Source: an uncultured Erysipelotrichaceae bacterium (GTDB lineage Bacteria; Bacillota_I; Bacilli_A; Erysipelotrichales; Erysipelotrichaceae). From it: DNA of 28,754 nucleotides. Within the stretch, counting starts at the first letter, position 1; each line of letters begins with the position of its first letter. The notes beneath the pieces were generated by a model, which was not told the origin of the DNA, made no database searches, and worked only from the letters and a program-made list of their open reading frames with translations. Positions 1 through 28,753 of the stretch are shown here, piece after piece. The stretch covers positions 1 through 28,754 of the forward strand of contig CAYWGS010000008.1 in NCBI GenBank assembly GCA_964457525.1, written 5' to 3'. The translations under genes were made by a program, and so were the position numbers.

Positions 1-125
1 TTAAAAACAGTAAAATTATATATATTTTGTAAAAAATGGTCAATTTGATAAAAGATAAAATCAAAAAGATAAATAAGAAAAGGATACGAGGGTTATAATA
101 AAGACGGTAAGGTCAGGTGATAAAT

Positions 126-1289
126 ATGTTATTAACAATTTCTGAAGAAACACTACACACAGCAAATGCTTTCAATACCGCTAAAGAAATAACTCAGCAA
201 CCACAAACTTGGGAAAAAACGGTTCAATTAGTTCAATCCAGTAAAGAAGTGATTCATAACTACTTTAATCAGATTGGAGAGCTTGGATCATTTGATATTG
301 TTTTGATGGGAGCAGGTACCAGTGAATATATTGGGAATACCTTAGTACACTATTTAAATAAATTGAGTAATTATAATGCCAGAAGTATTGCGTCAACAGA
401 TATGATACTAAATCCTGAGATGTATATTAATCCAAATCGAAATACATTATTTATTTCATATGGAAGAAGTGGTAATTCACCAGAATCTGTTGGGTCTGTT
501 TCGGCTGTTAATGCGGTGACAAACAATGCTTTCCATTTATTCATTACGTGTAATAAGAATGGTTCACTTGCAAAGCTAGCGGTTAATAATCCGCGTATTT
601 TAGCAATCGAACTACCAGAAGAAACAAATGATTTGGGTTTTGCGATGACATCAAGTTTTACAAATATGTTATTGGCGACTGTTCTCTGTTTCAATGTGAA
701 TAGAATTGAAGAGTATAAAACACTCGTAAGTGCATTAGCAAAATCAGTTAAGAATGATATGGAATCACATGCAAAACAAGTTTATGATATGATTCAAGAC
801 TATCCTTTTGAACGAATTGTTTACTTAGGTTCACAATGTATGAAGGGTTTTGCACAGGAAAGTGCACTTAAAATATTAGAACTTACTCAAGGTCGTATTC
901 CAACATTATTTGATACATTAACTGGTTTTAGACATGGTCCTAAGTCATTTATTAATTCAAAAACATTGATTGTTATTTACTTAAGTGATGATGATTTTAT
1001 ACGTCGTTATGAATTAGACTTAATTAACGAATTAAAGTCACAACAAAAAGGTTATAAGATTTTGATTGTAAATCACAAAGAAAGTGAGATCAAAGCTGAT
1101 TTTAATATTCAATGTGATTATAATGAACAACCTATGATTTTAGTTGGATTGAAGATGATTGTCATTGCACATATGATTTCATTCTTCAAATCCTATTCAT
1201 TAGGTATTACAGTGGACAATCCTTGCCCAACAGGTGAGGTTAATCGAGTTGTGACAGGAGTTACTATTTATCCTGTAGAAAGGGTTTAA
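126..1289 (+). CDS. agaS: AgaS-type double-SIS sugar-phosphate isomerase/deaminase (galactosamine-6-P to tagatose-6-P)
   Basis: ORF track gives 117..1289 with a GTG start. The first ATG, at 126, lies 5 nt after AGGTGA (115-120). Motifs TAKEITQQPQTW, GAGTSEYIG and GRSGNSPES plus a second SIS half are typical of AgaS/GlmS-like isomerases. The next gene starts 2 nt after the stop. Confidence 0.85.
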   Translation: MLLTISEETLHTANAFNTAKEITQQPQTWEKTVQLVQSSKEVIHNYFNQIGELGSFDIVLMGAGTSEYIGNTLVHYLNKLSNYNARSIASTDMILNPEMYINPNRNTLFISYGRSGNSPESVGSVSAVNAVTNNAFHLFITCNKNGSLAKLAVNNPRILAIELPEETNDLGFAMTSSFTNMLLATVLCFNVNRIEEYKTLVSALAKSVKNDMESHAKQVYDMIQDYPFERIVYLGSQCMKGFAQESALKILELTQGRIPTLFDTLTGFRHGPKSFINSKTLIVIYLSDDDFIRRYELDLINELKSQQKGYKILIVNHKESEIKADFNIQCDYNEQPMILVGLKMIVIAHMISFFKSYSLGITVDNPCPTGEVNRVVTGVTIYPVERV

Positions 1290-1290
1290 T

Positions 1291-1725
1291 ATGATAGGCG
1301 TAATTATTACAGGGCATGGTCGTTTTTCTGAAGGTATGATGAGTAGTTTAAACATGATTGCAGGTCAATCCGAAGCACTTATTGGAGTTAATTTCTTAGA
1401 ATCTGAATCAACTGAAGATTTAGATAAGAACTTATTAAATGCGTATCATGAATTAAGAAAAACGTGTGAAGGCGTTATTATTGTTTGTGACTTATTTGGT
1501 GGATCACCGTTTAAACAAGCCGCAACGTTATCTGTTCAACAAGAAAATATTTCTGTATTAGCAGGAATTAATCTGGCGTCATGCTTAGAGTTAATTTTTG
1601 CACGATTAGCAGAAACAGATGCACAAGTGTTAGCGGATGCGATGTTAGAAAAAGACTCAAACCGTTTAATCAAATTCACGATGCCAACACGTAAAGAACA
1701 AGTTGATATGGAGGATGGAATCTAA
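1291..1725 (+). CDS. PTS mannose/sorbose-family EIIA component
   Basis: 144 aa. The N-terminus MIGVIITGHGRFSEG carries the phosphorylatable His9 characteristic of EIIA-Man domains. Packed between agaS and the yajC-like gene. Confidence 0.85.
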   Translation: MIGVIITGHGRFSEGMMSSLNMIAGQSEALIGVNFLESESTEDLDKNLLNAYHELRKTCEGVIIVCDLFGGSPFKQAATLSVQQENISVLAGINLASCLELIFARLAETDAQVLADAMLEKDSNRLIKFTMPTRKEQVDMEDGI

Positions 1726-2009
1726 TGTCTCTACAAGATTATGTTACTGGAACAATCATTCTTGCGATTAATGTTGTTATTTTGTTGCTAATTTACTTAG
1801 CAGTAAGTTATATTCGTTTAAAGAATCAAAAGAAACCATTTGAAGAATTGCACAATAAACTAGCTGCAGGTAATCAAGTGCTTTTAGCCAATGGATTCTA
1901 TGGCAAAATAGTTGAATTAACGCAGGAGTATGCACTTGTTGAGATTGCGCCAAAAGTGAATGTAAAAGTATCACGTTTTGCGATTCAATCAATCGTGGGG
2001 GATAAATAA
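1725..2009 (+). CDS. yajC: YajC-family small membrane protein
   Basis: 94 aa with a single N-terminal TM helix (IILAINVVILLLIYLAV). The following segment QKKPFEELHNKLAAGNQVLLANGFYGKIVEL...VEIAPKVNVKVSRFAI aligns with the YajC core (KGDEVLTNGGLVGRV...). TAATG stop/start overlaps occur at both ends (1725 and 2009). Confidence 0.7.
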   Translation: MSLQDYVTGTIILAINVVILLLIYLAVSYIRLKNQKKPFEELHNKLAAGNQVLLANGFYGKIVELTQEYALVEIAPKVNVKVSRFAIQSIVGDK

Positions 2010-3298
2010 TGCACCCACTTAAGACACTCTTAGATCAAAGACATCAATCTGAATTAAAGGGGATTATTTCGATTTGTACCGCAAGTCCAATGGTTATTGA
2101 AGCATGTTTCGATTATTACAAATCAGTTAAAAGTCCTTTAATCGTAGAAGCAACTGCGAATCAAGTAAATCAAGAAGGTGGATATACTGGAATGAAACCA
2201 CAAGATTATGTGGATTTTGTTCAGAAATTAGCAGAAAAAAATCAATTTCCACTGGATCGTTTGTTTTTAGGTGGAGATCATCTAGGTCCATTAACCTGGT
2301 CAAAATTACCAGCTGAAGAAGCCATGCAAAAAGCAGAAGTTTTAGTTCATGACTTTGTTTTAGCTGGATTTACAAAGATTCATCTAGATACGAGCATGAA
2401 ATTAGCGGATGATGGTGAAGTTTTATTAACTGAAACCATTGCGGAACGTGGCATTCGATTAATGAAGGTCTGTGAAGCAGCTTATCTTAAACGTAAAGAA
2501 ATTTATCCTGATGCATTATTGCCTGTTTATATTATTGGTTCAGAAGTTCCAATTCCTGGTGGTGCTCAAGAAGTTGAAGAAGGCCTTGAAGTAACTAAAG
2601 TAGATGATTTTAAACATACTGTTGAAGTTTATCAAGATTTAATGAATAAAGCTGGATTAGGATCTGTTTTTGAACGTGTACTTGCGGTTGTGGTACAACC
2701 AGGTGTTGAGTTTTCAGATGCGAGTGTACATGAATACAATCCTGTTAAAGCCAAATCATTAGTACAAAGTCTAAGTCTTTATCCAACACTTGTTTTTGAA
2801 GGACATTCAACCGATTATCAAACAAAATTTGGATTAAAACAAATGGTTGATGACAATATCTCGATTTTAAAAGTAGGTCCTGCTTTAACATTTGCCTTAC
2901 GTGAGGGTTTATTTGCTTTAGCTCTTATTGAAAATGCATGGGTCGATTCGAGTAAACAATCCCATTTTATTGAGTTATTAGAAGAAATTATGTTAGAAAA
3001 TCCAAGTAATTGGATAAAACATTACCATGGAAATGAACATGAATTAGGAATTAAACGAAAATATAGTTTTTCGGATCGTAGTCGTTATTACATGCCTGAT
3101 CATCGTTTAGAAGAAGCGATTAAGGTATTATTTGAGAATACGAAGGATGTTCCTTATTCTCTTTTAAGTCAATTTTTACCAATTCAATATCGTAAAGTAC
3201 GTGAAGGACAATTAGCTTATAATCCAGAACTTTGGGTTAAAGATGTTGTTCATGAATTATTGAATGATTATATTTATGCAGTTGAAAAGTCTCAGTAG
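2009..3298 (+). CDS. agaZ: GatZ/KbaZ (AgaZ)-family protein: tagatose-bisphosphate aldolase accessory subunit or tagatose-6-P 4-epimerase homologue
   Basis: 429 aa. N-terminal GIISICTASPMVIEA, ATANQVNQEGGYTGM and GGDHLGP resemble the GatZ/KbaZ family. Last gene of the agaS operon, followed by a terminator hairpin. Confidence 0.8.
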   Translation: MHPLKTLLDQRHQSELKGIISICTASPMVIEACFDYYKSVKSPLIVEATANQVNQEGGYTGMKPQDYVDFVQKLAEKNQFPLDRLFLGGDHLGPLTWSKLPAEEAMQKAEVLVHDFVLAGFTKIHLDTSMKLADDGEVLLTETIAERGIRLMKVCEAAYLKRKEIYPDALLPVYIIGSEVPIPGGAQEVEEGLEVTKVDDFKHTVEVYQDLMNKAGLGSVFERVLAVVVQPGVEFSDASVHEYNPVKAKSLVQSLSLYPTLVFEGHSTDYQTKFGLKQMVDDNISILKVGPALTFALREGLFALALIENAWVDSSKQSHFIELLEEIMLENPSNWIKHYHGNEHELGIKRKYSFSDRSRYYMPDHRLEEAIKVLFENTKDVPYSLLSQFLPIQYRKVREGQLAYNPELWVKDVVHELLNDYIYAVEKSQ

Positions 3299-3309
3299 AG
3301 ACTTTTTTT
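3286..3309 (+). terminator. Rho-independent terminator after agaZ
   Basis: AAAGTCTC / loop AGTA / GAGACTTT, followed by a 7-T run. The hairpin spans the agaZ stop codon. On the minus strand (AraC) the hairpin has no U-tract. Confidence 0.7.
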
Positions 3310-4471
3310 AATTCACAATCGATTTTGCGTATTCACTTGGAGAAATACCATACTGTAATTTGAATTTACGAGAGAAGTAATGTATAGAAGCGAATCCTAA
3401 CATATCGCTTACTTCACTCACTGTACGTGCTGATTTCTTAAGTAATATCTTGCTTTGTTCTAGTTTGATGTTGTTTATGTAATGCTTTGGTGAGATATCT
3501 AAATTTCGTTTGAATAATGCTTGTAAAGATGATCGGGAGATTGCGAATTTATCACAAATTTCATTAATACTTAATGAACTATTGATATGATTCATGATGT
3601 ACTGAGTAATTTCATTCATAAGTTCATCTTCATAGTGTTGTTGCATTGGATTAATATTCTGTGAAGCAAATTCAATTTCATTGGTTTCATCCATGGCGTA
3701 AATTATTAATAGTTTTAATAAACTCAATAACAATTCATTTATGTGCTCCCAATTCTCATTGGATAAGTGCATGAACATGGATAATGTTTGATACATATTT
3801 TTACTACAATGGATGACCCTATTAGCGAGTTTCTCTGGCTCCATTTCTTTCATATCAAACATAATTGTCATATAAGAGCAGGTACTTTTATCGGTTGTAC
3901 GTTGAGTATGAAATTGATGTGGGCTATAAAAGAAGATCGAACGAGTAGGGAGTATATAATCTTCACCTTCAACATTCGTGATGAGTTCACCATTATCTAC
4001 GAATGTCATTTCCCAGTATGGATGTTTTTCGCCTTCGAAGAAATATGAGTTTCCTTTAGTGGAATAGTAGTAAGCATAGATCTCTTGAACCTTTATGGAT
4101 GACTTAATGCCCACTGAACCAAACTCAGGTATTCTTACTTTTTGACTGTTCGCATTTAAGTTCATTTGTATGGTAACGATACCAGACTGAGATAGACTAA
4201 TAAAGTTAAAATAGGTACCTGGTTTTATTTTTAATGTTTTATGTATTGCGAAGAGTTCAGGTTTTTCATTTAAATCGTTTAAAAATACAATACCAATGAT
4301 TCCACTATCGACTTGTACGCATACAGATCGATCATAGACATAGACTTCATCTATTTTTTTCTTTTTTATGGTTTTTTTAGCATTAAAATAGTTCGAATTA
4401 CCATTATTTGGTAGATTTTTCAATATTTCACAATACTTTGCACATTGTATCGAAGTTGTCTTTTTGTACAT
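3308..4471 (-). CDS. AraC-family transcriptional regulator with cupin-like sensor region and an extra N-terminal segment
   Basis: The C-terminal AraC double HTH is present (SINEICDKFAISRSSLQALFKR ... VSEVSDMLGFASIHYFSRKFKLQYGISPSEYA). A central cupin-like stretch reads HPYWEMTFVDNGELI...FYSPHQFH. I prefer the ATG at 4471 (MYKKTT) because GGAG lies 6-9 nt upstream; the ORF track starts at 4501. Confidence 0.85.
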   Translation of the reverse strand: MYKKTTSIQCAKYCEILKNLPNNGNSNYFNAKKTIKKKKIDEVYVYDRSVCVQVDSGIIGIVFLNDLNEKPELFAIHKTLKIKPGTYFNFISLSQSGIVTIQMNLNANSQKVRIPEFGSVGIKSSIKVQEIYAYYYSTKGNSYFFEGEKHPYWEMTFVDNGELITNVEGEDYILPTRSIFFYSPHQFHTQRTTDKSTCSYMTIMFDMKEMEPEKLANRVIHCSKNMYQTLSMFMHLSNENWEHINELLLSLLKLLIIYAMDETNEIEFASQNINPMQQHYEDELMNEITQYIMNHINSSLSINEICDKFAISRSSLQALFKRNLDISPKHYINNIKLEQSKILLKKSARTVSEVSDMLGFASIHYFSRKFKLQYGISPSEYAKSIVN

Positions 4472-4590
4472 TTTATATCTCCTATATTTGTGATAATTCA
4501 CACTATAAATTAATTCTATAACGAAAAATACAAATAGTATAGGTAAAAATATAAAGCAATTGAGTTTTTATAGGGTTATATTAAATGTAG

Positions 4591-4604
4591 GTAAAGCGCT
4601 ATCA
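4591..4604. promoter_or_regulatory. Candidate catabolite-responsive element (cre) upstream of PTS EIIB
   Basis: GTAAAGCGCTATCA matches 12 of 14 positions of TGWAANCGNTNWCA, with the central CG conserved. It lies 17 nt upstream of the EIIB SD. Confidence 0.35.
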
Positions 4605-4632
4605 CGGCGTTACTAGGAATGGAGGGAGTGCA

Positions 4633-5112
4633 GTGGCAAATATAGTTTTGACAAGAATTGATAATCGTTTAATCCATGGGCAAGTGGCAACACAATGGGC
4701 TTCAAGTGTTAAAGGAAATCTTATTCTTGTGGCTAATGATAAAGTTGCGAATGATACCTTTAGACAAGGTCTCATGGATATGGCAGCACCGAGTTTTTGC
4801 CAAACTCGCTATTTTACCTTAGAGAAGACGATCAACGTCATTCATAAGGCAAGCCCTGAGCAGAAGATTATCATCATGTGCGATAATCCAAGTGATGTCT
4901 TGACTTTGGTAGAGGGGGGCGTCCCTATTACAAAAGTTAACATCGGTAACATGCACATGGCTGAAGGCAAGCGTCAAGTTGCGACGGTTGTGGCTGTAGA
5001 TGACAAAGATGTTGCGGCTTTTCAAAGATTAGTCGAACTTGGGGTAGAACTTGAGATTCGAAAAGTACCGAGTGAAGGTACAGAAGATGTTCAAAAATTA
5101 TTTAAAAAATAA
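4633..5112 (+). CDS. PTS mannose/sorbose-family EIIB component
   Basis: 159 aa. MANIVLTRIDNRLIHGQVATQW contains the canonical EIIB-Man phospho-His (His15). GTG start, preceded by GGAGGGAG (4621-4628). Confidence 0.9.
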   Translation: MANIVLTRIDNRLIHGQVATQWASSVKGNLILVANDKVANDTFRQGLMDMAAPSFCQTRYFTLEKTINVIHKASPEQKIIIMCDNPSDVLTLVEGGVPITKVNIGNMHMAEGKRQVATVVAVDDKDVAAFQRLVELGVELEIRKVPSEGTEDVQKLFKK

Positions 5113-5127
5113 AGGAGATGAAACAAT

Positions 5128-5922
5128 ATGACTTTTAGCTTTATTCAAATTTTACTTGTTATGATTGTAACTTTCATCGCCGCTATTGATCAGTTCTCTT
5201 TCCTTGAATCATTATATCAACCAATCGTAATGGGACCAGTTGTTGGTGCTATTCTTGGTGATATGAACACTGGCTTAATCGTTGGTGGTTCTTATCAATT
5301 AATGATGATTGGTAGTATGCCGGTCGGCGGTGCTCAACCACCTAACAGTGTTATCGGTGGAATCATGGCAACAGTGTTTGCGATTTCCATGAATATTACA
5401 GACCCACAAGCTGCGCTTGGTTTATCCATTCCGTTTGCTTTATTAGGTCAATATGCAGTTATCTTAGTGTTTACAATCACTTCACCATTAATGGCTAAGG
5501 CTGATGATTATGCTAAGAATGCTGATACTAAAGGCATTGAACGTTTAAACTACATTACAATGGGTTTACTCGGATTATTATTCGCATTCGTCGTATTGGC
5601 TGGATTACTATTCGGTCAAGCTATTGGTGAAACTTTAACCAACGTATTACCTATCTGGGTATGGAATGGTTTAAAGGCTGCTGGTGGTATGATGCGTTTC
5701 GTAGGGTTTGCTGTATTGTTGAAAGTTATGATGTCAAACGAATACTGGGGCTTCTATTTCGCAGGATTCGCATTGGCTACAATCGTCGACAAAGCTGGTT
5801 TAGGCGGACAAGCTTTAGCACTTATCGCTCTAATCGGATTTGCAATTGCAGTTTACGACTATCAAACTAATGTTAAGATGAAACAATTTGGTAAAAAGGA
5901 GGTAAGCAATGATGGCATCTAA
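5128..5922 (+). CDS. PTS mannose/sorbose-family EIIC component
   Basis: 264 aa polytopic membrane protein. N-terminal IAAIDQFSFLESLYQPIVMGPVVGAILGD is typical of ManY/AgaC-type EIIC. SD AAGGAG lies upstream. Confidence 0.85.
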   Translation: MTFSFIQILLVMIVTFIAAIDQFSFLESLYQPIVMGPVVGAILGDMNTGLIVGGSYQLMMIGSMPVGGAQPPNSVIGGIMATVFAISMNITDPQAALGLSIPFALLGQYAVILVFTITSPLMAKADDYAKNADTKGIERLNYITMGLLGLLFAFVVLAGLLFGQAIGETLTNVLPIWVWNGLKAAGGMMRFVGFAVLLKVMMSNEYWGFYFAGFALATIVDKAGLGGQALALIALIGFAIAVYDYQTNVKMKQFGKKEVSNDGI

Positions 5923-6736
5923 TCTTGCAACAAATTATCGTGATCTAAATCCAGCGGCTCCGCTCGATAAAAAGACCTTGAACCAAATGGCTTGGCGTTC
6001 CCTCTTCTTGCAAGGTTCATTCAACTATGAACGTATGCAAGCTGCAGGATGGTTATATGGTATTATTCCAGGATTGAAGAAAATTCATACTGACAAAGAA
6101 GACTTATCATTATCCATGCAACACAACCTTGAGTTCTTTAATACTCACCCATTCTTAGTAACATTCGTTATGGGTATCGTTCTATCCATGGAACAAGAAA
6201 AATCCGATATCGGTACAATCCGTGCAGTACGTGTTGCTGCTATGGGTCCTCTAGGTGGTATTGGTGATGCTATTTTCTGGTTTACACTCGTTCCGATCGC
6301 TGCTGGTATCAGTGCTAATATGGCACTTGATGGCAGTATCGCTGGTCCAATTGTATTCTTGTTGATGTTCAACGTTGTACAATTCGCAGTACGTTATTGG
6401 TTAATGCACTGGTCCTATAACTTAGGTACTAAGGCAATCGAAGCAATTACTCGTAATGCAAAAGAATTTACACGTGCAGCTTCCATCTTAGGTATCTTGG
6501 TTGTCGGTTCTCTTACTTCCTTATATGGTGGTACAACAATCGCATTAACAATTCCTAACGGTGAAAGTCCTATTGTTTTACAAAATATCTTAGACGGTAT
6601 CTTACCAAAACTTATCCCATTAGGCTTAACACTTGGTTTATACTGGCTCATTAAAAACAAAAACTGGTCTGCTGTTAAGTGTATTGCACTTCTCTTAGTT
6701 CTAGGATTAGTTGGCGGATTCTTAGGATTATTCTAA
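5909..6736 (+). CDS. PTS mannose/sorbose-family EIID component
   Basis: 275 aa. WRSLFLQGSFNYERMQAAGWLYGIIPGLKKI is the ManZ/AgaD signature. GGAGG sits 6 nt upstream of the ATG. The gene overlaps EIIC by 14 nt. Confidence 0.9.
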   Translation: MMASNLATNYRDLNPAAPLDKKTLNQMAWRSLFLQGSFNYERMQAAGWLYGIIPGLKKIHTDKEDLSLSMQHNLEFFNTHPFLVTFVMGIVLSMEQEKSDIGTIRAVRVAAMGPLGGIGDAIFWFTLVPIAAGISANMALDGSIAGPIVFLLMFNVVQFAVRYWLMHWSYNLGTKAIEAITRNAKEFTRAASILGILVVGSLTSLYGGTTIALTIPNGESPIVLQNILDGILPKLIPLGLTLGLYWLIKNKNWSAVKCIALLLVLGLVGGFLGLF

Positions 6737-6760
6737 TCAGTTAATACTCCCTTCCAAACC

Positions 6761-6785
6761 AGGAATCTCTCGCGAGATTCCTTTT
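6761..6785 (+). terminator. Probable rho-independent terminator after PTS EIID
   Basis: AGGAATCTC / loop TCGC / GAGATTCCT (9 bp), followed by a short TTTT tract. Confidence 0.55.
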
Positions 6786-6812
6786 CCTGTTAAAAGTAAA
6801 AGTGTGAAAAAT

Positions 6813-8057
6813 ATGAAAATTTCAATCAAAAAATCATGTATTACGCCTGTTGTACCAAGTTATTTATCAGGTCAAATCAATCGAATAGAGAAGCATACTT
6901 CAGTTCTAGATGATTTGTTTTGTTATGTACTTGTGATGGAACATAATGGGAATAAGATTTGCATGTTACAGTATGATTTACTTCAATTTGATGATTATTT
7001 ATCCAATCGAATTCGTAACCGTGTAAAAGATGAACTCAATATCTCTTTTGAATCCGTCTTTACGATTCCAAGTCATACGCATGCTGCACCAGAAGTACTT
7101 AGAGATGGTTTGTTTGGGATTAAAACGGAATCGAGTGTAGCGGAAGGCTACCTCGATTTCTTAGTTGATGTTAGTGTTAAAACGGCACTTGTTGCGAATG
7201 ACACACTCATAGAGTCAGATCTTTCTTATAGTGAATATGCGATTGATGGTTATTATGGTAATCGTAATAATAAGAATAATCCAGCAGATAAGAAAATACG
7301 ATTTGTACAGTTTAAAGCAAACAATAATACGCTTGGAATGCTTGTAAATCTATCTTGTCATCCAACAGTATTAGGTCAAACAAATACTCAGATAAGTGCT
7401 GATTTATTTGGTTATATTCGTAAGGGATTGGAAGAGCGTTACAATTGCCCAGTGTTTATGAGCAATGGAGCTGAAGGAGATATCAGTAATCGTCATTACC
7501 GTTTGAGTGATGATGTGAATGAACTTATTCGAACAGGTAAAGGAATTCTAGAACAGATACCGAGTACACTAGTGTTCAATGATTTTAAGAGTGTTAATTT
7601 AAAAATATACACTAAACAATTTAATTTTCATTGCTTTAATGATACTAAACGTTTAGAAGAAGCAATCCAGCGCAATAATCAACTTATATTACAATCAAGT
7701 GATAAGGATCAATTAAAGATACTAAACGCAACAAATACTGTTTTATATCATCAGATAAAGAAAAATATTGATGATATCCTAAGTATTTCATACAGTATTA
7801 TCCAACTTGGAGACGTATTTATTGTGACTGTACCAATGGAACTATTCTCAAGTTTATATTTGAAAATTGATCAAACAAATCCTGTTCTATTGTTTGGTTT
7901 GACGAATACATCGGTAGGTTATTGTGCAGATGAATTATCCTATGATTCAACCTATGAAGGTCTAACCAGTCCGTTTATAAAAGGTGAGGGTGAACGATTC
8001 ATCCAAGAGATAAATAAAGAATTGAGTCAAATAAGACGCAGATTAGAATCAATTTGA
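6813..8057 (+). CDS. Neutral/alkaline-ceramidase-like (N-terminal domain family) putative metallo-amidohydrolase, cytoplasmic
   Basis: There is no signal peptide. Four motifs are spaced as in the neutral ceramidase catalytic domain: N-terminal SCITPVVPSYLSGQ, PSHTHAAPE (compare HTHSGP), NLSCHPTVLG and NGAEGDISNR (compare GDVSPN). The start is uncertain (ATG 6813 or GTG 6804) and neither has a clear SD. Confidence 0.45.
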   Translation: MKISIKKSCITPVVPSYLSGQINRIEKHTSVLDDLFCYVLVMEHNGNKICMLQYDLLQFDDYLSNRIRNRVKDELNISFESVFTIPSHTHAAPEVLRDGLFGIKTESSVAEGYLDFLVDVSVKTALVANDTLIESDLSYSEYAIDGYYGNRNNKNNPADKKIRFVQFKANNNTLGMLVNLSCHPTVLGQTNTQISADLFGYIRKGLEERYNCPVFMSNGAEGDISNRHYRLSDDVNELIRTGKGILEQIPSTLVFNDFKSVNLKIYTKQFNFHCFNDTKRLEEAIQRNNQLILQSSDKDQLKILNATNTVLYHQIKKNIDDILSISYSIIQLGDVFIVTVPMELFSSLYLKIDQTNPVLLFGLTNTSVGYCADELSYDSTYEGLTSPFIKGEGERFIQEINKELSQIRRRLESI

Positions 8058-8080
8058 TACAATAGTATTGAGGTTTATGT

Positions 8081-8869
8081 ATGAAAGAAAAAATAGTGTT
8101 TATTGAATCCATATTACCAGAGATTAGAGAATTGATATTAAGTAAGACCATTCAAGAAGTGATTGTAAAGGATAATGAATTTGATAATATTGTGACTGAT
8201 TTAGATATACTTGTACAAAATACGTTGATCAAATCTCTTACAGAGAAATTTCCAGATACACAAGTTTTAGGTGAAGAAAGTGAAGAGCATATCTTTACCG
8301 ATAAGATGTGGATTATTGATCCGATTGATGGAACAAAGAACTTTTTTAGACGTAAAGAAGATTTCGCAATATCCATTGCTTATTATGAAAATATGAAACC
8401 TGTATTTGGGTTTGTTTTTGATGTAGTTAAAAATGATATTTATCTTGGGATTGTTGGTCAAGGTGCTTATCTAAATAAACAAGCATTAAGTAAATTACCG
8501 ATACGTACCATGAATCAATCAGTCCTAGATATGAACTTAAAGACTTTATATACCTTAGAAGAAAAATACAATGCAAATGTTAAACTTGTTTCAACTCAAG
8601 TCTTTGCTCATCGTAATATTGGATCTGCGGCAATTAGTATGTGTCAAATCGCACGAGGTTTACATGATATTTATATTTCCAGTCATTTAAAACTATGGGA
8701 TTATGCGGCTTCAAGTATTGTGTTAAAAGAAGTGGGTGGAGAAGTTTATTTCCCATTTGAAGATAAAAAAGAATTAAATGTTAAGTCTGTATTCTTATTT
8801 GCGACAAGCAGTAAAGAAGTATATCAAGATCTAAACCAATTACTATACGGAGACCAACATGCGAGCTGA
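8081..8869 (+). CDS. Inositol-monophosphatase (IMPase/SuhB) family phosphatase
   Basis: 262 aa. Both IMPase motifs are present: WIIDPIDGTKNF and LWDYAASSIVLKEVGG. GAGG SD lies upstream. Confidence 0.85.
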   Translation: MKEKIVFIESILPEIRELILSKTIQEVIVKDNEFDNIVTDLDILVQNTLIKSLTEKFPDTQVLGEESEEHIFTDKMWIIDPIDGTKNFFRRKEDFAISIAYYENMKPVFGFVFDVVKNDIYLGIVGQGAYLNKQALSKLPIRTMNQSVLDMNLKTLYTLEEKYNANVKLVSTQVFAHRNIGSAAISMCQIARGLHDIYISSHLKLWDYAASSIVLKEVGGEVYFPFEDKKELNVKSVFLFATSSKEVYQDLNQLLYGDQHAS

Positions 8870-9659
8870 TTATCATATCCATTCAAATTTTAGTGTAGAC
8901 TCGAAGTTAGAGATGGAAGAGATTATCCAACAAGCAATAAACCTTGGTTTAGATGAAATCTGTTTTACGGATCATGTGGATTATGATGTTAAGAATCATA
9001 TTGTAGATAAACAAGAAGTGGATTATCCGAATTTCTTTAGTGAGTATGAACGAGTTAAGAATCTCTATAAAGACAAAATTACCATAAAAGTTGGATTGGA
9101 ATTTGGTGTACAACTTCATACGATGAATCGATATGTTGATGATATGAAAAAATATCCGATTGATTTTGTATTGTTAAGTTGCCATCAGATTGAGAATAAA
9201 GAATTATGGTTAAATGAATATCAGAAAGACAAAACACAAATTGAATATAATCGAGGTTATTATGAATACTTGTACCAACTCGTTGATCAATTTGATGACT
9301 TTAGTGTTTTAGGTCATTTGGATGTCATTAAGCGATACGATAATAATGGAGTACTTGATGATGAATATGTTATTGATATTATCGAAAAAATCTTAAAACG
9401 TGTCATTGAAAAGGGCAAAGGAATCGAAGTAAATACATCAAGCTATCGTTATAATTTGCCTGACTTAACTCCTTCAACTCGAATACTCAAGTTATATTAT
9501 GATTTAGGTGGAAGAATTTTAACGATGGGTTCAGATACACATAAAATAGAACATTTAAAGGATCACTTTGAAGAGATTATTCTTCAATTAAAAGCAATTG
9601 GATTTACAGAGTTGTATACTTTTGAAAAGATGAAAGCATATAAATATAAAATGGATTAA
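8859..9659 (+). CDS. PHP-domain phosphatase of the HisJ/HisK (histidinol-phosphatase) family
   Basis: 266 aa. N-terminal ADYHIHSNFSVDS, then FTDHVDY, a SCHQ... segment, GHLD and GSDTH form the PHP metal-ligand pattern. The gene overlaps the IMPase gene by 11 nt. Confidence 0.8.
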   Translation: MRADYHIHSNFSVDSKLEMEEIIQQAINLGLDEICFTDHVDYDVKNHIVDKQEVDYPNFFSEYERVKNLYKDKITIKVGLEFGVQLHTMNRYVDDMKKYPIDFVLLSCHQIENKELWLNEYQKDKTQIEYNRGYYEYLYQLVDQFDDFSVLGHLDVIKRYDNNGVLDDEYVIDIIEKILKRVIEKGKGIEVNTSSYRYNLPDLTPSTRILKLYYDLGGRILTMGSDTHKIEHLKDHFEEIILQLKAIGFTELYTFEKMKAYKYKMD

Positions 9660-16696: not shown

Positions 16697-16959
16697 ATAA
16701 AAGCGTTGAAGAGAAGAGTAAACGGTGGATGATTTCATAGAGAGCCCTGGAGTGCTGAAAGGGGTAAATCAAAAACAGTTGAACATGGTCTTGGAGCAAG
16801 CATACCGATGGGAAACCTTAGATTATGCCGGATTCGCCCGTTACAGCGATAGAGTATAACCTTTCATAGGCGTACTTGATAAGGTTTATAAAGTGATTTA
16901 TAAACGAACATAGGTGGTAACACGGGTAAGCCCTCGTCCTTAGTGATGGGGGCTTTTTT
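16697..16959 (+). promoter_or_regulatory. T-box riboswitch leader, probable Met (AUG) specifier, controlling metNIQ
   Basis: The Stem I 5' side GCGUUGAAGAGAAGAGUA closely parallels the B. subtilis glyQS leader (GCGAUGAGAAGAAGAGUA). AG bay AGAGAG is at 16739-16744 and distal loop GGAGUGCUGAAAGG follows. The specifier-loop 3' side is GAAC-AUG-G (AUG at 16785-16787), then UCUUGGAGCA. The T-box sequence UAGGUGGUAACACGGG has UGGU at 16915-16918. A terminator hairpin and U-tract lie immediately before the metN SD. Confidence 0.8.
16928..16959 (+). terminator. T-box intrinsic terminator (attenuator)
   Basis: AGCCC (16929-16933) pairs with GGGCU (16950-16954) and is followed by UUUUUU. The 5' arm overlaps the T-box antiterminator sequence. 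Confidence 0.7.
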
Positions 16960-16974
16960 GTATAGGAGGAAACT

Positions 16975-17712
16975 ATGATAGAAATCAAAGGGTTAAAGAA
17001 AAGCTTTAATACAGCAAATGGAACACTTGTAGCGCTGGATAATGTCAACCTAAGTTTAGATAAAGGTGAAATGGTTGGGATAATCGGTATGTCAGGTGCA
17101 GGCAAGACAACCTTATTGCGTTGCTTAAGCTTACTTGAGAAACCAGATGAGGGTGAAATATTGATTGATCACTTGAATCTTCTTGAGGCGAAGGATGATC
17201 GAATGCGTGAATATCGTCAAAAGATTGGGGTCGTATTTCAAGGAAATCAATTACTTAAACAACGAAATGTGTATGATAATATCGCTTTTCCACTTACATT
17301 AAGAAACGATAAGAAAGAGAACTATGATCAAAAAATCAGAAACTTAATTGAACTCGTTGGATTAAGTGGTAAAGAATTAAGTTATCCATCTCAATTATCG
17401 GGTGGTCAGAAACAAAGAGTTGCGATCGCACGAGCGCTTGCGAGTAGTCCAGATTTACTTTTATTGGATGAACCCACAAGTGCACTTGATTCCATCACAA
17501 CACGAGCTTTATTGGAACTCTTAAAAGAGATTCATGAAAAAACACATGCGACAATCTTGATCATTACACATGAGTTAAGTGTTGTACAAAAGGTATGTGA
17601 AAAAGTAGTTGTGATTGATGGTGGTCAGTTCATAGAACAGGGTCGAGTAGAAGATATCTTCAATCATCCGCAACACAAAACAACTCGTTTACTTCTTGGA
17701 TTGGAGAACTAA
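16975..17712 (+). CDS. metN: Methionine-type ABC importer ATP-binding protein, lacking the C-terminal NIL domain
   Basis: 245 aa. Walker A GMSGAGKTT, signature LSGGQKQR, Walker B LLLLDEPTSALD. Sits in MetN-MetI-MetQ gene order behind a T-box(Met) leader. SD AGGAGGA. Confidence 0.8.
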   Translation: MIEIKGLKKSFNTANGTLVALDNVNLSLDKGEMVGIIGMSGAGKTTLLRCLSLLEKPDEGEILIDHLNLLEAKDDRMREYRQKIGVVFQGNQLLKQRNVYDNIAFPLTLRNDKKENYDQKIRNLIELVGLSGKELSYPSQLSGGQKQRVAIARALASSPDLLLLDEPTSALDSITTRALLELLKEIHEKTHATILIITHELSVVQKVCEKVVVIDGGQFIEQGRVEDIFNHPQHKTTRLLLGLEN

Positions 17713-24530: not shown

Positions 24531-24546
24531 ATATGGTTCTACTTAC

Positions 24547-24565
24547 TAGAGAACAGTGTTCTCTA
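24547..24565. repeat. Perfect 19-bp (9-1-9) palindrome TAGAGAACA-G-TGTTCTCTA in the leader of the ABM/siderophore operon
   Basis: The arms are exact reverse complements. It lies 17 nt upstream of the ABM start codon (24530, minus strand). Its function as an operator or RNA hairpin is inferred. Confidence 0.6.
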
Positions 24566-24598
24566 CTTTCTAAGCAGATAAGTTCTATCTACGGTTTG

Positions 24599-24628
24599 AG
24601 AATACCATAAGTCTTTTTAAGGTTGCAA
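24599..24628 (-). promoter_or_regulatory. Possible promoter of the ABM/siderophore operon
   Basis: Minus strand reads TTGCAA, an 18-nt spacer, then TGgTATTCT (extended -10-like). Confidence 0.3.
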
Positions 24629-24645
24629 ATGATATTATCATAATT
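24627..24645. promoter_or_regulatory. Weak Fur-box-like element
   Basis: Minus strand reads AATTATGATAATATCATTT. It contains a perfect TGATAAT half-site and matches 11 of 19 positions of GATAATGATAATCATTATC (better if one base is inserted). It abuts the self-complementary TTGCAA at 24623-24628. Confidence 0.3.
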
Positions 24646-24663
24646 AAGTTAATTAAGCGTCTA

Positions 24664-24672
24664 TGGTATAAT
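24664..24672 (+). promoter_or_regulatory. Extended -10 promoter (TGGTATAAT) of the DUF1538/PII unit
   Basis: TGnTATAAT lies 31 nt upstream of the TTG start. The SD AAGAGG is in between. Confidence 0.45.
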
Positions 24673-24703
24673 ATTTAAACAATAGAATAGAAAGAGGTAT
24701 CGT

Positions 24704-26194
24704 TTGAATATTTTCACGCAGAAGCTTAAAGAAGTTTTTTTATCCATATGTCCCGTTTTTATTGTGGTCAATTTGACCCACTTTTTGATTTTTCCTTTGT
24801 CAACCCATTTATATGTCCGATTCTTAATTAGTACCGTTATATTAATACTCGGATTAACCTTGTTTTTAATTGGTGTAGATCTTGGTATAAGTCCAATGGG
24901 ACAAATGTTAGGTCCATTGATTGCGAAACGTAATAAACATCGTTATATTGTAATCTTTGGTTTTATCATTGGATTCTTTATTTCCTTTGCGGAACCCGCT
25001 TTACTCATCATGTCCCAACAAGTTGAACAACTCAGTAGTGGAGTCTTAAGTTCTGAACTCTTGTTGGTGGTAGTATCCATTGGGATTGGGACGATGGTAG
25101 TGGTTGGTTTATTCCGACTTCTCTATAATTTACCACTTTATATCATCTTGCTTATATCTTATGGAATCATTTTCCTACTATCCCTGAATACATCGTTTGA
25201 TATGTTAGCGATTGCCTTTGATTCTTCAGGTGTAACTACAGGAATATTAGCTGTTCCATTCTTATTATCATTATCACTCGGGCTAACGAATATAAAGAAA
25301 GATAGTAAATCATCTGAGAAAGATAGTTTTGGACTAATTTCGATTGCGTCTGCTGGGGCAATCATAATAGTATTATTGCTTAACCGTTTATACCAACCGA
25401 ATTTATCTTCCGCAACGATATCCTATTTAAATTACGATTCAATCACGATTTTTAGAACATTTATGATTCAAATTCCAAGTTCAATAAGAGAAACATTTTT
25501 ATCAATGTCTCCACTTATAGTGATGGGAATACTTGTGGGATATTTTAATCGGAAATCAATTTCAAAACGAGGTTTAGTTCGTTTAACCTTTGGATTTATC
25601 TATGCGGTTTTAGGATTGTTTTTATTCTTAGTTTCAATTAATGCAAGTTATATTGAGATTGGGAATACGATTGGAAATCAATTAATCAATGAACTGAGTT
25701 CGACTAAATTAATCTTATTTGGCTTCTTAATTGGGGTTGCGACAATTCTAGCAGAGCCTGCAGTATATGTATTAACCAATCAAATAGAAACAGTCACATC
25801 CGGTTATATCAAACGTCGATCAGTGTTAATTGCTTTAACGATTGGGGTAGGAAGTGCTATTTCTTTCTCTGTGTTACGCGTATTAATTCCTGAGGTGCAA
25901 TTATGGCATTTCTTATTACCTGGCTATTTAATTGCTTTAGGATTAATGTTCATCGTTCCAAAGTTGTTCGTAGGGATTGCGTTTGATGCGGGTGGGGTTG
26001 CGACGGGTCCAATGATTTCAACATTTATTCTTTCATTTATTCATGGATTAGCCGATGCAATGCCAAGTGCAGATGTTTTGATTGATGGATTTGGGATGGT
26101 ATCATTGGTTGCGCTAATGCCAATTATAACAATCGAAATATTAGGCTTGGTTTTTAAGATTAAGTCGAGCAAGGAAGGTGTAACAAATGTCTAA
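24704..26194 (+). CDS. Internally duplicated DUF1538-type polytopic membrane protein (putative transporter)
   Basis: 496 aa. Two homologous halves offset by about 255 residues: FAEPALLIMSQQVEQLSSG / LAEPAVYVLTNQIETVTSG and AIAFDSSGVTTGILAVPFLLS / GIAFDAGGVATGPMISTFILS. TTG start 6 nt after AAGAGG. Confidence 0.65.
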   Translation: MNIFTQKLKEVFLSICPVFIVVNLTHFLIFPLSTHLYVRFLISTVILILGLTLFLIGVDLGISPMGQMLGPLIAKRNKHRYIVIFGFIIGFFISFAEPALLIMSQQVEQLSSGVLSSELLLVVVSIGIGTMVVVGLFRLLYNLPLYIILLISYGIIFLLSLNTSFDMLAIAFDSSGVTTGILAVPFLLSLSLGLTNIKKDSKSSEKDSFGLISIASAGAIIIVLLLNRLYQPNLSSATISYLNYDSITIFRTFMIQIPSSIRETFLSMSPLIVMGILVGYFNRKSISKRGLVRLTFGFIYAVLGLFLFLVSINASYIEIGNTIGNQLINELSSTKLILFGFLIGVATILAEPAVYVLTNQIETVTSGYIKRRSVLIALTIGVGSAISFSVLRVLIPEVQLWHFLLPGYLIALGLMFIVPKLFVGIAFDAGGVATGPMISTFILSFIHGLADAMPSADVLIDGFGMVSLVALMPIITIEILGLVFKIKSSKEGVTNV

Positions 26195-26834
26195 GTTAGT
26201 ATTAAATTACCTGATTGTTAATCAAGGGATGGGAAGTAAATTATTGAGTTATGCAAAAACCTTAGGATTACAAGGGGGTACCATTTTTATGGCACATGGA
26301 ACAATCAATAACTCATTATTAAAATTACTCAACTTAAATGAGAATCGTAAAGATGTTGTGCTTATAGCGGAAAATCTAAATCAAGATGGAAGCCAATTAA
26401 AAAAAATTGCGGATCATTTCCAATTTCATCGACCTAATCATGGAATTGGATTTAACATAGCAATTACTCAACTCTATAAAGCTAAAGAAGAAGGATTAAT
26501 CAAAGGAGAATCAAGTATGAACAAGTATGAACTTATTTATGCGATTGTTAATAAAGGAAAAGGAGAAGAAGTGGTAGAAGCAGCACAAAAAGCAGGATCT
26601 AGTGGTGCAACTATTATTAATGCGAGAGGTTCAAGTGTGCATGAGACCGCAAAAATATTCTCGATAGAGATTGAACCTGAGAAGGAAATTGTATTGATGA
26701 TTGTTAAGTCAGATATAAAAGAAAATATTTGTCAAACGATTATTAAAGATACAAATATTACAGAACCTGGTAAAGGTGTCTTGTTTACCCAAAGCATTAA
26801 TGAAGTCTATGGTTTATACGAAGATAATCATTAA
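26187..26834 (+). CDS. Fused tandem PII-like (GlnB-fold) protein
   Basis: 215 aa with two beta-alpha-beta repeats. Repeat 2 (YELIYAIVNKGKGEEVVEAAQKAGSSGATIINARGS...EKEIVLMIV...EPGKGVLFTQSINEVYGL) parallels the canonical PII layout (IEAII...GMTVTEVKGFG...KIEIVV...GDGKIFVSPVEEV). Repeat 1 (LNYLIVNQGMGSKLLSYAKTLGLQGGTIFMAHGT...VVLIA...NHGIGFNIAITQLY) is more diverged. The gene overlaps the DUF1538 gene by 8 nt. Confidence 0.6.
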   Translation: MSKLVLNYLIVNQGMGSKLLSYAKTLGLQGGTIFMAHGTINNSLLKLLNLNENRKDVVLIAENLNQDGSQLKKIADHFQFHRPNHGIGFNIAITQLYKAKEEGLIKGESSMNKYELIYAIVNKGKGEEVVEAAQKAGSSGATIINARGSSVHETAKIFSIEIEPEKEIVLMIVKSDIKENICQTIIKDTNITEPGKGVLFTQSINEVYGLYEDNH

Positions 26835-26875
26835 CATTTAAAAGGGACTTATGGTATTGTAATAGTATACAAACT

Positions 26876-28753
26876 ATGAAAATTAAAAATCTAACCATTG
26901 TAGCTCTAATTGTATCTTTTTTTATCATCGTAACTGCAATTTATGTCAATTTTGATTTGGTTGCGAATGTGCGTTTTTATGTGGATCAGAATGATGAGCT
27001 AGTCGATCGTTTAAATGAGGGAAAACTGAAGTTAGAAACACCGATACAACAGTTAAAAGACATCAATGAGTACGCTCGAACAACTGTTTCTGTAGCGATA
27101 ATCAAAGATGAATTATCGGATCTTATTGAAGAGATGCAAAGTGATTCATTAGATTTAAAGAATAACTTGAATATCATGAATGAGATAAGTATTAAACGTC
27201 ATAATGAAGGAATTCAAGCCATCTCTGCTAAGCTTCTACAGTTACAAATCAATCTTGATAAAATCCAATTTTTTATTAATCAAAATATGGTTTTGAGTGA
27301 AATGTTAGATTCGAGTTTAGAAACTCGAAAGGACATTAATCAATTAATCTTAGATATTGATAAAGATTATTCCAATCTTAATCAAGTAATTCTAAGTGAT
27401 TTGAGTATTGTATTAAATGTAATATTTATTAGTTTACTTTCCATAGTAGGCTTACTATTCTTTGGTCTCATACGTTTTGTGAATTTCCAAATTCCTTATA
27501 TTGTAAATGGTTTAACCATGTTAGGGGATAAACAGTACGATAATCAGCGACTAAATATTCCTAAGCCATTCTTTATTGAAGAAAAGAACATCCATAAGTA
27601 TATTGAAACAGTATTTGAAGAGAATCGATTTATTGAGGATGTTAAGGAAGTACTATTAAAGGTTTATACACTTGAAGATGCAGTAGATCATCTATTCAGT
27701 TTATTAAAGGAAAGAATGGGTGTAGATCGAGTAGGTCTTGCGTTTGTGGACTATTCTCGTGAGATGATTGTGGCTGAGTACGGTGTTCTTGTGGATCAGA
27801 ATATTAAGTTAGGTCCAGGTTTTGAAGTGCCATTTGTACGTACTTCTTTGTTTGATTTGATTGAATCCAAGAAACCAGTTATTAACAATGATTTAGAAAA
27901 TGAATTTATTAAACGACCAAAAAGTTCTTCACTTTATCTCTTATCGCTCGAAGGTGTCAAATCAAATCTTATTTTACCGTTAACGATGGGCAATGCAGTA
28001 TTTGGGTTCTTGTTTCTGAGTTCAAGACAGAAGAATTTCTTTGATCTAAATCATTTACATCTCGCGGAAAAGATTGTTTATGAGATTAAAGGATTACTCA
28101 ATCGTACCTATTTTACCAAGGTAATCTTTAACAAAATTACGACAGGATTCTCTGAATTAGTGGATAAAAAAGACAATGAAACCGGTCAACACATAAATCG
28201 TATGGTTAATTATTCTACTTTATTAGCACAAAAACTGGTTGAGAAGAATCATCCTGATTATCCAATCAATGATAAGATTGTTCTTGAGATAGAACGAAAC
28301 GCGGCAGTTCATGATATTGGTAAAGTAGGAATCCCTGACTCAATCTTAAAGAAACCAGGTAAGCTAACGGATGAAGAATGGGAAATAATGCGTACTCATC
28401 CAATTATTGGTGGAGATATCTTCAAGAGTATGCGTGAGGGATTAAAGGCATTTGATCCAGAACTTTATAAAGTCTCTGAAGAGATTACACGATTCCACCA
28501 TGAAAAATGGAATGGAGAAGGATATCCTAATGGCTTAAAGGGATTTGAGATTCCTTTAGTTGCCAGAATTGTATCAGTTGCGGATGTGTTTGATGCGATA
28601 TCAAACAAACGCGTTTACAAGGATGCATTTGATTTTGAGGAATCGTTTAAGATGTTAGAAGAAATGAAAGGCAAGAATCTTGATCCTTTCTTGGTTGATT
28701 TGTTTATCGAAAATTCAGACGAAGTATTAAAGATTTATCAAAAATATCAATAA
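26876..28753 (+). CDS. Membrane sensor: two TM helices flanking a roughly 150-aa helical extracytoplasmic region, then GAF and HD-GYP phosphodiesterase domains
   Basis: 625 aa. TM1 is LTIVALIVSFFIIVTAIYV and TM2 is LSIVLNVIFISLLSIVGLLFFGLI. GAF-like region: VDRVGLAFVDYSREMIVAEYG...LILPLTMGNAVFGFLFLSS. HD-GYP domain: HINRMVNYS, VHDIGKVGIPDSIL, HHEKWNGEGYPNGL. No SD is visible upstream. Confidence 0.8.
   Translation: MKIKNLTIVALIVSFFIIVTAIYVNFDLVANVRFYVDQNDELVDRLNEGKLKLETPIQQLKDINEYARTTVSVAIIKDELSDLIEEMQSDSLDLKNNLNIMNEISIKRHNEGIQAISAKLLQLQINLDKIQFFINQNMVLSEMLDSSLETRKDINQLILDIDKDYSNLNQVILSDLSIVLNVIFISLLSIVGLLFFGLIRFVNFQIPYIVNGLTMLGDKQYDNQRLNIPKPFFIEEKNIHKYIETVFEENRFIEDVKEVLLKVYTLEDAVDHLFSLLKERMGVDRVGLAFVDYSREMIVAEYGVLVDQNIKLGPGFEVPFVRTSLFDLIESKKPVINNDLENEFIKRPKSSSLYLLSLEGVKSNLILPLTMGNAVFGFLFLSSRQKNFFDLNHLHLAEKIVYEIKGLLNRTYFTKVIFNKITTGFSELVDKKDNETGQHINRMVNYSTLLAQKLVEKNHPDYPINDKIVLEIERNAAVHDIGKVGIPDSILKKPGKLTDEEWEIMRTHPIIGGDIFKSMREGLKAFDPELYKVSEEITRFHHEKWNGEGYPNGLKGFEIPLVARIVSVADVFDAISNKRVYKDAFDFEESFKMLEEMKGKNLDPFLVDLFIENSDEVLKIYQKYQ

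Follow-up and report, generated by a model that had tools for sequence, protein, structure and literature searches.

In the window analyzed here, namely, the whole stretch of 28,754 nucleotides (nt) of contig CAYWGS010000008.1 from an uncultured Erysipelotrichaceae bacterium (assembly GCA_964457525.1), two overlapping genes on the forward strand encode a 496-amino acid (aa) membrane protein of the DUF1538/UmpAB family (positions 24704-26194, TTG start) and a 215-aa protein that consists of two PII-like units (positions 26187-26834). These genes are probably an unstudied transporter-plus-regulator pair of the GlnK-AmtB kind, and not a nitrogen regulator. We consider it fairly probable that the membrane protein is an ion-coupled, most likely cation/proton, transporter controlled by the bound PII-like subunit. 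Transport activity has already been reported for DUF1538 proteins, in the case of UmpAB, but the pairing with a PII-like partner is widespread and uncharacterised as a pair. An earlier note on this DNA, made from the sequence alone, had proposed a transporter-plus-sensor pair; the two family assignments and the gene linkage on which it was built are retained below and natural fusions are added to them, whereas the nucleotide-binding residues that it assumed and the local regulatory links that it drew are not.

The linkage between the two genes is conserved far outside the window. Scanning of one genome per species yielded 513 loci with relatives of the fused DUF1538 protein, and all counts for fused loci given here refer to the best 80 of these 513 (47-85% identity). 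A tandem PII-like open reading frame (ORF) of ~212-260 aa lies directly downstream of the fused DUF1538 gene in 79 of the 80 loci, and clustering of all flanking ORFs identified the PII-like gene as the sole conserved neighbour of the fused genes. These loci span Clostridia, Erysipelotrichia, Enterococcus, Streptococcus, Acholeplasmataceae and one Sphaerochaetaceae genome. The same arrangement is observed from the PII side: all three tandem PII-like proteins that were looked up, in five places, are encoded directly behind a DUF1538 gene of ~498 aa. Among the split-type metagenome loci, which were gathered with a Methylocystis DUF1538 subunit as the query (n=80), a PII-like gene is adjacent to a pair of separate DUF1538 genes (~231 and ~243 aa) in 74, and all 74 partners contain a single unit; five of the six split loci that lack the partner end no more than ~170 nt past the second DUF1538 gene. 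In two split loci, the PII-like gene is located ahead of the DUF1538 pair. Annotated plasmid examples come from Methylocystis, Chelativorans, Vescimonas and Paraclostridium; on the Methylocystis and Chelativorans plasmids, two DUF1538 genes come first and a single-unit "P-II family" gene (112-122 aa) next. The sampled pattern is that of a fused transporter with a tandem partner and a split transporter with a single-unit partner, and the operon linkage typical of PII-regulated transporters is found in all three samplings (79/80, 74/80 and 3/3), as the reading of the earlier note demanded. A search of the literature on DUF1538/UmpAB and PII proteins found no paper that links DUF1538 to a PII-like protein.

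The number of PII units per chain varies with the lineage, from one to two or three. An exhaustive profile search with the partner retrieved 486 clusters (50% identity) at E <=1e-30, mostly tandem partners, and 1,942 clusters at E <=1e-10. One of the retrieved proteins, P0361 (a 90%-identity cluster with 22 members, on long contigs), contains three PII-like units in a single 357-aa chain and is encoded directly behind a fused 512-aa DUF1538 gene, with a 4-nt overlap (L165:3466-7652); the next genes encode an SH3_actinomycetes+MgtE_N+CBS protein and a DUF1003 protein. Such a covalent pseudo-trimer would bear on the stoichiometry of the PII proteins. In P0434 (709 aa; L166:311-2440), the whole DUF1538 transporter and a tandem PII are joined in a single polypeptide, and the 5'-truncated P0395 (L167:24-1277) is the same transporter-PII fusion. 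Given that these two proteins come from different samples, are 59% identical and align without gaps through the junction, the fusion is inherited and is not a sequencing artefact. Read as Rosetta-stone evidence, the fusions argue for the transporter and the PII-like protein acting as one complex, and the order of the fused parts would place the PII units at the cytoplasmic C-terminal tail of the transporter. A further variation on unit number is seen in an Alkalibacterium metagenome-assembled genome (MAG), where an additional 100-aa single-unit PII-like ORF (L069:6614-6916; Pfam P-II, E 1e-10) is located just upstream of the fused DUF1538 gene, with the usual tandem gene present downstream as well.

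In the window, the two ORFs overlap by 8 nt, with the ATG of the partner at 26187-26189 and the TAA of the transporter gene at 26192-26194, exactly where both had previously been placed. A Shine-Dalgarno-like AAGGAAGG (26171-26178, forward strand), read from the sequence, falls within the 3' end of the transporter gene and precedes the partner's ATG by 8 nt; this site and the overlap, taken together, suggest translational coupling of the two genes. Similarly, in most of the best 80 fused loci, an in-frame start of the partner ORF is reached no later than the transporter stop, and the called genes overlap by 11-17 nt at the places where tandem PII-like proteins were looked up. The TTG start of the transporter gene is credible because the N-termini of the homologues begin at the same residue (in the family alignment, M1 is nearly invariant and N2 is invariant) and a Shine-Dalgarno-like AAAGAGG is present 6 nt upstream, at 24691-24697. 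Taken as a unit, the two genes are probably a self-contained, translationally coupled module.

The family assignment of the membrane protein is established by two matches to Pfam DUF1538 (PF07556; 393.5 bits against a cutoff of 22.6). Its two halves align with each other over 228 residues with 28% identity (BLASTP E 1e-22), far beyond chance, which bears out the internal duplication previously read from repeated motifs. The first, UmpA-like repeat occupies residues ~1-240 (nt 24704-25423) and the second, UmpB-like one residues ~249-496 (nt 25448-26191). In an alignment of four repeat classes (N halves, C halves, A-type subunits and B-type subunits, with 25 sequences of each), the N half is A-type (UmpA-like), with the TTGVL signature, and the C half is B-type (UmpB-like), with the GGVATGP signature; hence, the duplication is older than the distinction between the split and fused forms. 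The 496-aa protein is a member of the UmpAB family and not an ortholog of UmpAB: with the NCBIfam "Na,Li,K/H+ antiporter subunit" models for UmpA and UmpB (NF041627/NF041628), it scores 171.1 bits against the equivalog cutoff of 490 and 136 bits against that of 500, respectively. Because the scores are that far under the cutoffs, the substrate may differ from that of UmpAB.

Each repeat carries two conserved motifs that coincide with interruptions of helices in the AlphaFold model (predicted local distance difference test, pLDDT, 84.3; predicted template modelling score, pTM, 0.84). The AEPAL motif (residues 96-100, nt 24989-25003) is located at the break of helix 79-110, and its counterpart AEPAV (residues 350-354, nt 25751-25765) at a break in helix 333-364, the breaks themselves being at residues 96-98 and 349-352. 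The AFDSSGVTTG motif (residues 171-180, nt 25214-25243) runs across the end of helix 165-177 into unwound residues, and the second repeat contains AFDAGGVATG (residues 426-435, nt 25979-26008); of the motif positions given by the earlier note, 96, 350 and 171 are correct, whereas the last motif starts at 426 and not at 427. The non-helical stretches 178-182 and 433-435, within segments 165-195 and 420-452, lie beside D173 and D428. In the family alignment, E97, P98, E351 and P352 are invariant columns, as are D173 and D428, and each of the four repeat classes retains both the E-P pair and the Asp. Ion-coupled carriers are usually built from inverted repeats whose discontinuous helices bear buried acidic residues. 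The invariant Glu of AEPA and the invariant Asp of AFD..G.TTG are likely ion or proton binding sites.

The two repeats appear to be inserted into the membrane in opposite orientations. The contents of lysine and arginine (K+R) in the N and C halves are, respectively, 2.0 and 1.3 at the N-terminus, 0.1 and 3.4 in loop 28-38 (N-half numbering, here and below), 2.8 and 0.8 in loop 59-80, 0.0 and 2.4 in loop 108-118, 0.2 and 1.0 in loop 159-166, 4.1 and 0.4 in loop 195-212, and 0.7 and 4.6 in the tail, so that inside and outside loops sum to 8.9 and 1.0 in the N half and to 11.4 and 2.5 in the C half. The contrast recurs between A-type and B-type subunits at five of the seven loops, and it is weak at loops 59-80 and 108-118. 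Since the halves have opposite K+R biases, under the positive-inside rule, and each repeat has seven helices, the predicted topology consists of 7+7 transmembrane helices with oppositely inserted halves and both termini in the cytoplasm. A Foldseek comparison of the model with solved structures gave no significant match (best E 9e-3, TM <=0.24), and a sequence search of the PDB with the membrane protein found nothing significant and no DUF1538 structure. Thus, no solved fold resembles the model, and function cannot be transferred on the basis of the fold.

What is known of the function of the family comes from UmpAB of Halomonas zhaodongensis, a pair of DUF1538 proteins reported in 2017 as a Na+(Li+,K+)/H+ antiporter (PMC5484666). 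Co-expressed UmpA and UmpB rescue the antiporter-less Escherichia coli strain KNabc, conferring Na+/Li+ tolerance, and functional assays revealed pH-dependent Na+(Li+,K+)/H+ antiport by the pair; the two proteins form a hetero-dimer, and seven transmembrane segments were predicted for each (PMC5484666). The earlier statement that no substrate had been demonstrated for DUF1538 proteins is, therefore, out of date, as the existence of the NCBIfam UmpA and UmpB models also indicates. The protein from the window shares with UmpAB the Pfam family, the correspondence of the N half to the A-type and of the C half to the B-type, and the E-P and Asp motifs that are kept in all repeat classes. It differs in that the subunits, which are separate in UmpAB, are joined in one 496-aa chain, in the scores that fall far below the equivalog cutoffs, and in the PII-like partner, which is near-universal in the window and its relatives. 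The cloned umpAB insert contains four listed ORFs that end with umpB, none of them PII-like, and the paper never mentions a PII-like gene (PMC5484666).

Several correlations agree with the UmpAB result, all of them without background controls. In 9 of the 80 fused loci, a gene for an Na_H_Exchanger protein lies no more than three genes away from the module, and the neighbours in split loci include tandem Usp proteins (18), P-type cation ATPases (11), K+-channel-like proteins (4) and Na_H_Exchanger+TrkA_C proteins (3), these being raw frequencies. A machine-learning study across genomes selected DUF1538 among the transport families predictive of the optimal pH for growth (PMC13255231). Alkaliphiles or soda-lake sediments account for many of the relatives (Tindallia, Anoxynatronum, Natranaerovirga, Isachenkonia, Alkalithermobacter, Alkalibacterium and several soda-lake MAGs), again a raw observation, made without a background distribution. 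The tandem Usp gene (Usp twice, ~296 aa) is located beside the single-unit PII-like gene in the 18 split loci, directly downstream of it in most (e.g., L093:6195-7085), and could be an additional, lineage-specific part of the module.

In the 215-aa partner, only the C-terminal unit is matched by Pfam P-II (PF00543; residues 116-210, 34 bits against a cutoff of 25), which places this family, too, above its threshold, and the N-terminal unit is not detected by Pfam. The two halves nevertheless align over 98 residues with 28% identity (E 4e-11), and the AlphaFold model (pLDDT 79.9, pTM 0.77) contains two beta-alpha-beta-beta-alpha-beta units, so that the N unit can be assigned the PII fold and the two-unit architecture that had been proposed is substantiated. 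In a Foldseek search, a single unit of ~95 residues matches GlnK/GlnB (GlnK1) best, with E 3e-6 and TM 0.6-0.7 on the target. The N unit (residues ~1-97, nt 26187-26477) is diverged and contains ENRKD and PNHG motifs; a disordered linker (residues 97-111) connects it to the C unit (residues ~112-210, nt 26520-26816), which carries RGSSVHETAK...EIEPEKE and EPGKGVLF. In the family alignment of the PII-like partners, F158, E161-E167, G197 and G209 are invariant. The C unit and the single-unit partners have a common signature, GGT(I/V)..(G/A)RG.G(I/V)(H/N)E....(F/L)G(I/M).(I/V)EPEKE(I/V)(V/L)L...(P/T)G.G(I/L/V)(A/I/L)F(V/T), and the single-unit partners are closer to the C unit (E ~1e-29) than to the N unit (E ~1e-19). 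The N unit has its own conserved variants, E.RKE and KPNHGIAF, which indicates that it diverged under constraint and is not decayed.

The partner does not appear to be a sensor of the familiar kind. Its T-loop is, as noticed before, shortened, by 6 residues compared to GlnB/GlnK, with no Tyr at the apex and hence no Tyr51/Ser49-type site. The canonical set of ATP/2-oxoglutarate contacts of GlnB/GlnK (Q39, K58, K90, R101, R103) is not present: K58 is replaced by an invariant Glu, K90 by V/I/L, R101 by an invariant Gly and R103 by Tyr, where the first two replacements and the T-loop gap are also seen against a PDB GlnK chain, and the last two come from the alignment with a hand-entered E. coli GlnB sequence. 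Of the GlnB positions, only the structural glycines G37, G87 and G89 are retained. The B-loop resemblance previously pointed out for EPGKGVLF holds for its two glycines, which align with G87 and G89, but not for the residues around them, given that its K aligns with D88 and V takes the place of K90. Sensing of nucleotides by the partner can, therefore, not be presumed, the contacts for nucleotides and for 2-oxoglutarate being absent alike. Because the T-loop is shorter and the contacts are replaced, with only the glycines kept, the partner is, as judged from its sequence, PII-like and does not belong to the sensors of ATP and 2-oxoglutarate of the GlnB/GlnK type; the public name of its homologues, "P-II family nitrogen regulator", overstates what is known of it.

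Comparison with characterized PII systems shows both common features and clear differences. As in GlnK-AmtB, a PII-fold protein is encoded beside, and probably co-translated with, the transporter that is expected to be its target, and GlnK is the best fold match of the PII-like unit; unlike in GlnK-AmtB, the transporter has another fold, and the regulator is tandem, with a shorter T-loop, no modification site and unconserved ATP/2-oxoglutarate contacts. The pair resembles SbtB-SbtA in that a PII-like protein is dedicated to one adjacent secondary transporter, but it shows no sequence match to solved SbtB, has no C-terminal redox loop and contains an unrelated membrane protein. The closest solved sequence relative of the C unit, found with the family profile, is the P-II protein of a methanogen nitrogenase (PDB 9p1x chain H, E 5e-7), which also has a short T-loop; that protein, however, retains the GDGR/K B-loop, consists of a single unit and partners with nitrogenase. 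PstA/DarA proteins are c-di-AMP-binding PII-like proteins of Bacillota, with the PII fold and a shortened T-loop. They are not known to be transporter-linked, in contrast to the partner described here, and the possibility that PstA/DarA, SbtB or CutA are its closer relatives was rejected, with no matches to any of these in the Pfam or PDB searches.

Combined, these features point to the following putative mechanism. The membrane protein would be the single-chain form of the two-subunit UmpAB, with UmpA-like and UmpB-like 7-helix repeats arranged head to tail in opposite orientations, giving a pseudo-dimer of 14 helices whose two ends are both cytoplasmic. Each repeat would contribute two discontinuous helices in which the invariant Glu and Asp are the likely ion or proton sites of a secondary transporter, and, by homology to UmpAB, a monovalent cation/proton antiporter for cation and pH homeostasis appears most likely. 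The PII-like subunit would most likely dock on the cytoplasmic face of the transporter via the short invariant T-loop region (RGSGIHETSK..F..EIEPEKE) and would turn transport on or off on sensing a small molecule other than canonical ATP/2-oxoglutarate.

Several points weigh against this interpretation. The bit scores fall far below the equivalog cutoffs for UmpA and UmpB, and the function of UmpAB itself comes from a single study that employed heterologous complementation and antiport assays (PMC5484666). The topology is predicted from the positive-inside rule only and, with no match to a solved fold, the assignment as a transporter draws on UmpAB and on the architecture of the protein. With two units per chain, the partner departs from the canonical PII homotrimer of single-unit chains; the two-unit chain has no obvious fit to the usual trimer. 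P0434 and P0395 are singletons on short metagenome contigs, and the neighbour frequencies lack a background control. Finally, L038 is the lone fused locus without a partner gene; in this Oscillospiraceae MAG (L038:1993-3613), an unrelated gene (843 aa) comes 144 nt after the DUF1538 gene.

Among the alternatives, the one that survives best, even if we deem it unlikely, retains the architecture and the regulation and changes the substrate, which would be Mg2+, K+ (uptake), bicarbonate, ammonium or a small organic ion, with the partner reporting the status of that substrate. It would fit the distant relationship between the window protein and UmpAB, the control of ammonium (GlnK-AmtB) and bicarbonate (SbtB-SbtA) transporters by PII-family partners (bioRxiv 10.1101/2023.08.10.552651), the gene for an MgtE_N+CBS protein that follows the triple-unit variant, and the presence of a SulP gene ~5 kb from the Methylocystis module. 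The sole experimental datum for the family, however, is cation/proton antiport (PMC5484666), the recurrent neighbours are monovalent-cation or proton transporters, and no carbonic anhydrase, amtB or glnA is found among the recurrent neighbours.

A second alternative, which appears improbable, is that the module belongs to a local iron/heme and cyclic di-GMP (c-di-GMP) circuit, sharing its control region with the divergent heme-oxygenase/FecCD operon and being co-transcribed with the HD-GYP gene; the shared control region had been drawn by the earlier note, which also placed the HD-GYP gene behind the module. The divergent intergenic region upstream of the module (24531-24703) is 173 nt long and contains, by direct reading of the sequence only, a candidate extended -10 element (TG-n-TATAAT, 24664-24672, forward strand); a consensus promoter scan of this region reported no promoter on the forward strand, and an Rfam search of it for a riboswitch or leader gave no match. 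Downstream, the 41-nt spacer (26835-26875) indeed contains no terminator-like hairpin, as had been remarked, and is followed by a gene on the forward strand (26876-28753) that encodes a membrane-anchored 625-aa protein with GAF and HD-GYP domains (Pfam HD_5, HD and GAF_2, with a partial NCBIfam match) and the motif HHEKWNGEGYP, a probable c-di-GMP phosphodiesterase; in the closest relative, L001 (85% identical), an HD-GYP gene also follows the module, at +40 nt. Nevertheless, this position is kept in only that one of the 80 relatives, and iron/heme genes (the divergent heme-oxygenase-like/FecCD/ABC operon) abut the module in none, so that neither neighbour is found there in the other 79 loci. 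L002 and L023 have HD-GYP-like genes on the upstream side of the module, and L047 has a FecCD/ABC cluster there, at a distance of more than 4 kb. Furthermore, a search for Fur boxes (<=3 mismatches) found no site in the 173-nt region, the window-wide count being equal to chance, and a weak promoter-like match (26831-26860) precedes the HD-GYP gene. With their positions not conserved among the 80 relatives, the HD-GYP and iron/heme genes were rejected as parts of the module.

Even less probable is the alternative that DUF1538 is a membrane sensor or scaffold, not a transporter, with the PII-like protein as its signalling output. A confident model that matches no solved transporter fold, in a family with no solved structure found, is compatible with such a role, but the antiport data for UmpAB (PMC5484666), the lack of extramembrane sensor domains, and the predicted inverted 7+7 repeats with discontinuous helices and buried invariant Glu and Asp, typical of ion-coupled carriers, all speak for transport. 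That the 215-aa protein is an ordinary GlnB/GlnK nitrogen regulator, incidentally located beside a membrane gene, as could be surmised from the above-threshold Pfam P-II match, the GlnK/GlnB fold matches and the public names of the homologues, is highly improbable and already contradicted on sequence grounds by the tandem units, the short T-loop without a Tyr51-type site, the replacement of K58, K90, R101 and R103, and the adjacency to DUF1538 in 79/80 and 74/80 loci with no amtB or glnA adjacent.

PII proteins are among the most widespread signal transducers. To our knowledge, few of their transporter partners are understood, chiefly AmtB and SbtA. The transporter-plus-regulator pair described here provides a testable third case of such a partnership, one that ranges over Bacillota, Acholeplasmataceae, Sphaerochaetaceae, Alphaproteobacteria and a contig with actinomycete-type domains. 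Its recognition would correct the blanket annotation "P-II family nitrogen regulator", would provide the DUF1538/UmpAB family with a regulatory subunit, one not taken into account in its sole functional study, and points to a membrane fold without a solved representative; the variation from one to three units per chain, along with the full fusion, amounts to a natural experiment on PII stoichiometry. A bolder proposition, which we put forward tentatively and with slightly less than even confidence, is that DUF1538 and its PII-like partner make up a third, widespread and undescribed class of PII-controlled transporters, with a 7+7 inverted-repeat fold absent from the PDB, a PII subfamily in which the adenylate/2-oxoglutarate site is replaced by an invariant acidic T-loop (EPEKE), and one, two or three linked units or a fusion to the transporter. 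If this is true, a new ligand is to be expected, and the PII subunits would act in a non-trimeric or pseudo-trimeric manner.

Some additional observations concern the surroundings of the module in the relatives. The DNA upstream of the module is 97-100% identical, with identical ORF coordinates, in four loci (L046, L059, L063 and L066, ~6920-9155) from Alkalithermobacter, Lacrimispora defluvii, a Eubacteriaceae MAG and Streptococcus plurextorum, which suggests recent horizontal transfer. A small DUF1413 gene is located ahead of the module in four loci, including L046. In Acholeplasmataceae and related loci, a tRNA and a c-di-AMP riboswitch are found on the opposite strand, ~180-1,060 nt upstream of the DUF1538 start (L035:6496-6820, L044:6442-6753, L045:5943-6791, L072:6467-6776 and L075:3982-4293); as this riboswitch serves the divergent gene, it was not accepted as a sign that c-di-AMP controls the module.

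Elsewhere in the window, a perfect 9-1-9 palindrome, TAGAGAACA-G-TGTTCTCTA (24547-24565), is located 17-35 nt upstream of the heme-oxygenase-like (ABM/IsdG-type) gene on the minus strand; it has no match to the Fur consensus and may serve the heme/iron ABC operon as an operator. At 16697-16944, upstream of ORFs that start at 16975, there is a T-box leader (Rfam RF00230, 98.8 bits). The region 117-9659 is a sugar-utilisation cluster that encodes a SIS-domain protein, a mannose-type EIIA component (EIIA-man) of the phosphotransferase system (PTS), a GatZ/KbaZ-like tagatose-bisphosphate aldolase subunit, a divergent AraC-type regulator and mannose-family PTS IIB/IIC/IID components, as well as ceramidase-like, inositol monophosphatase family and PHP-domain proteins.

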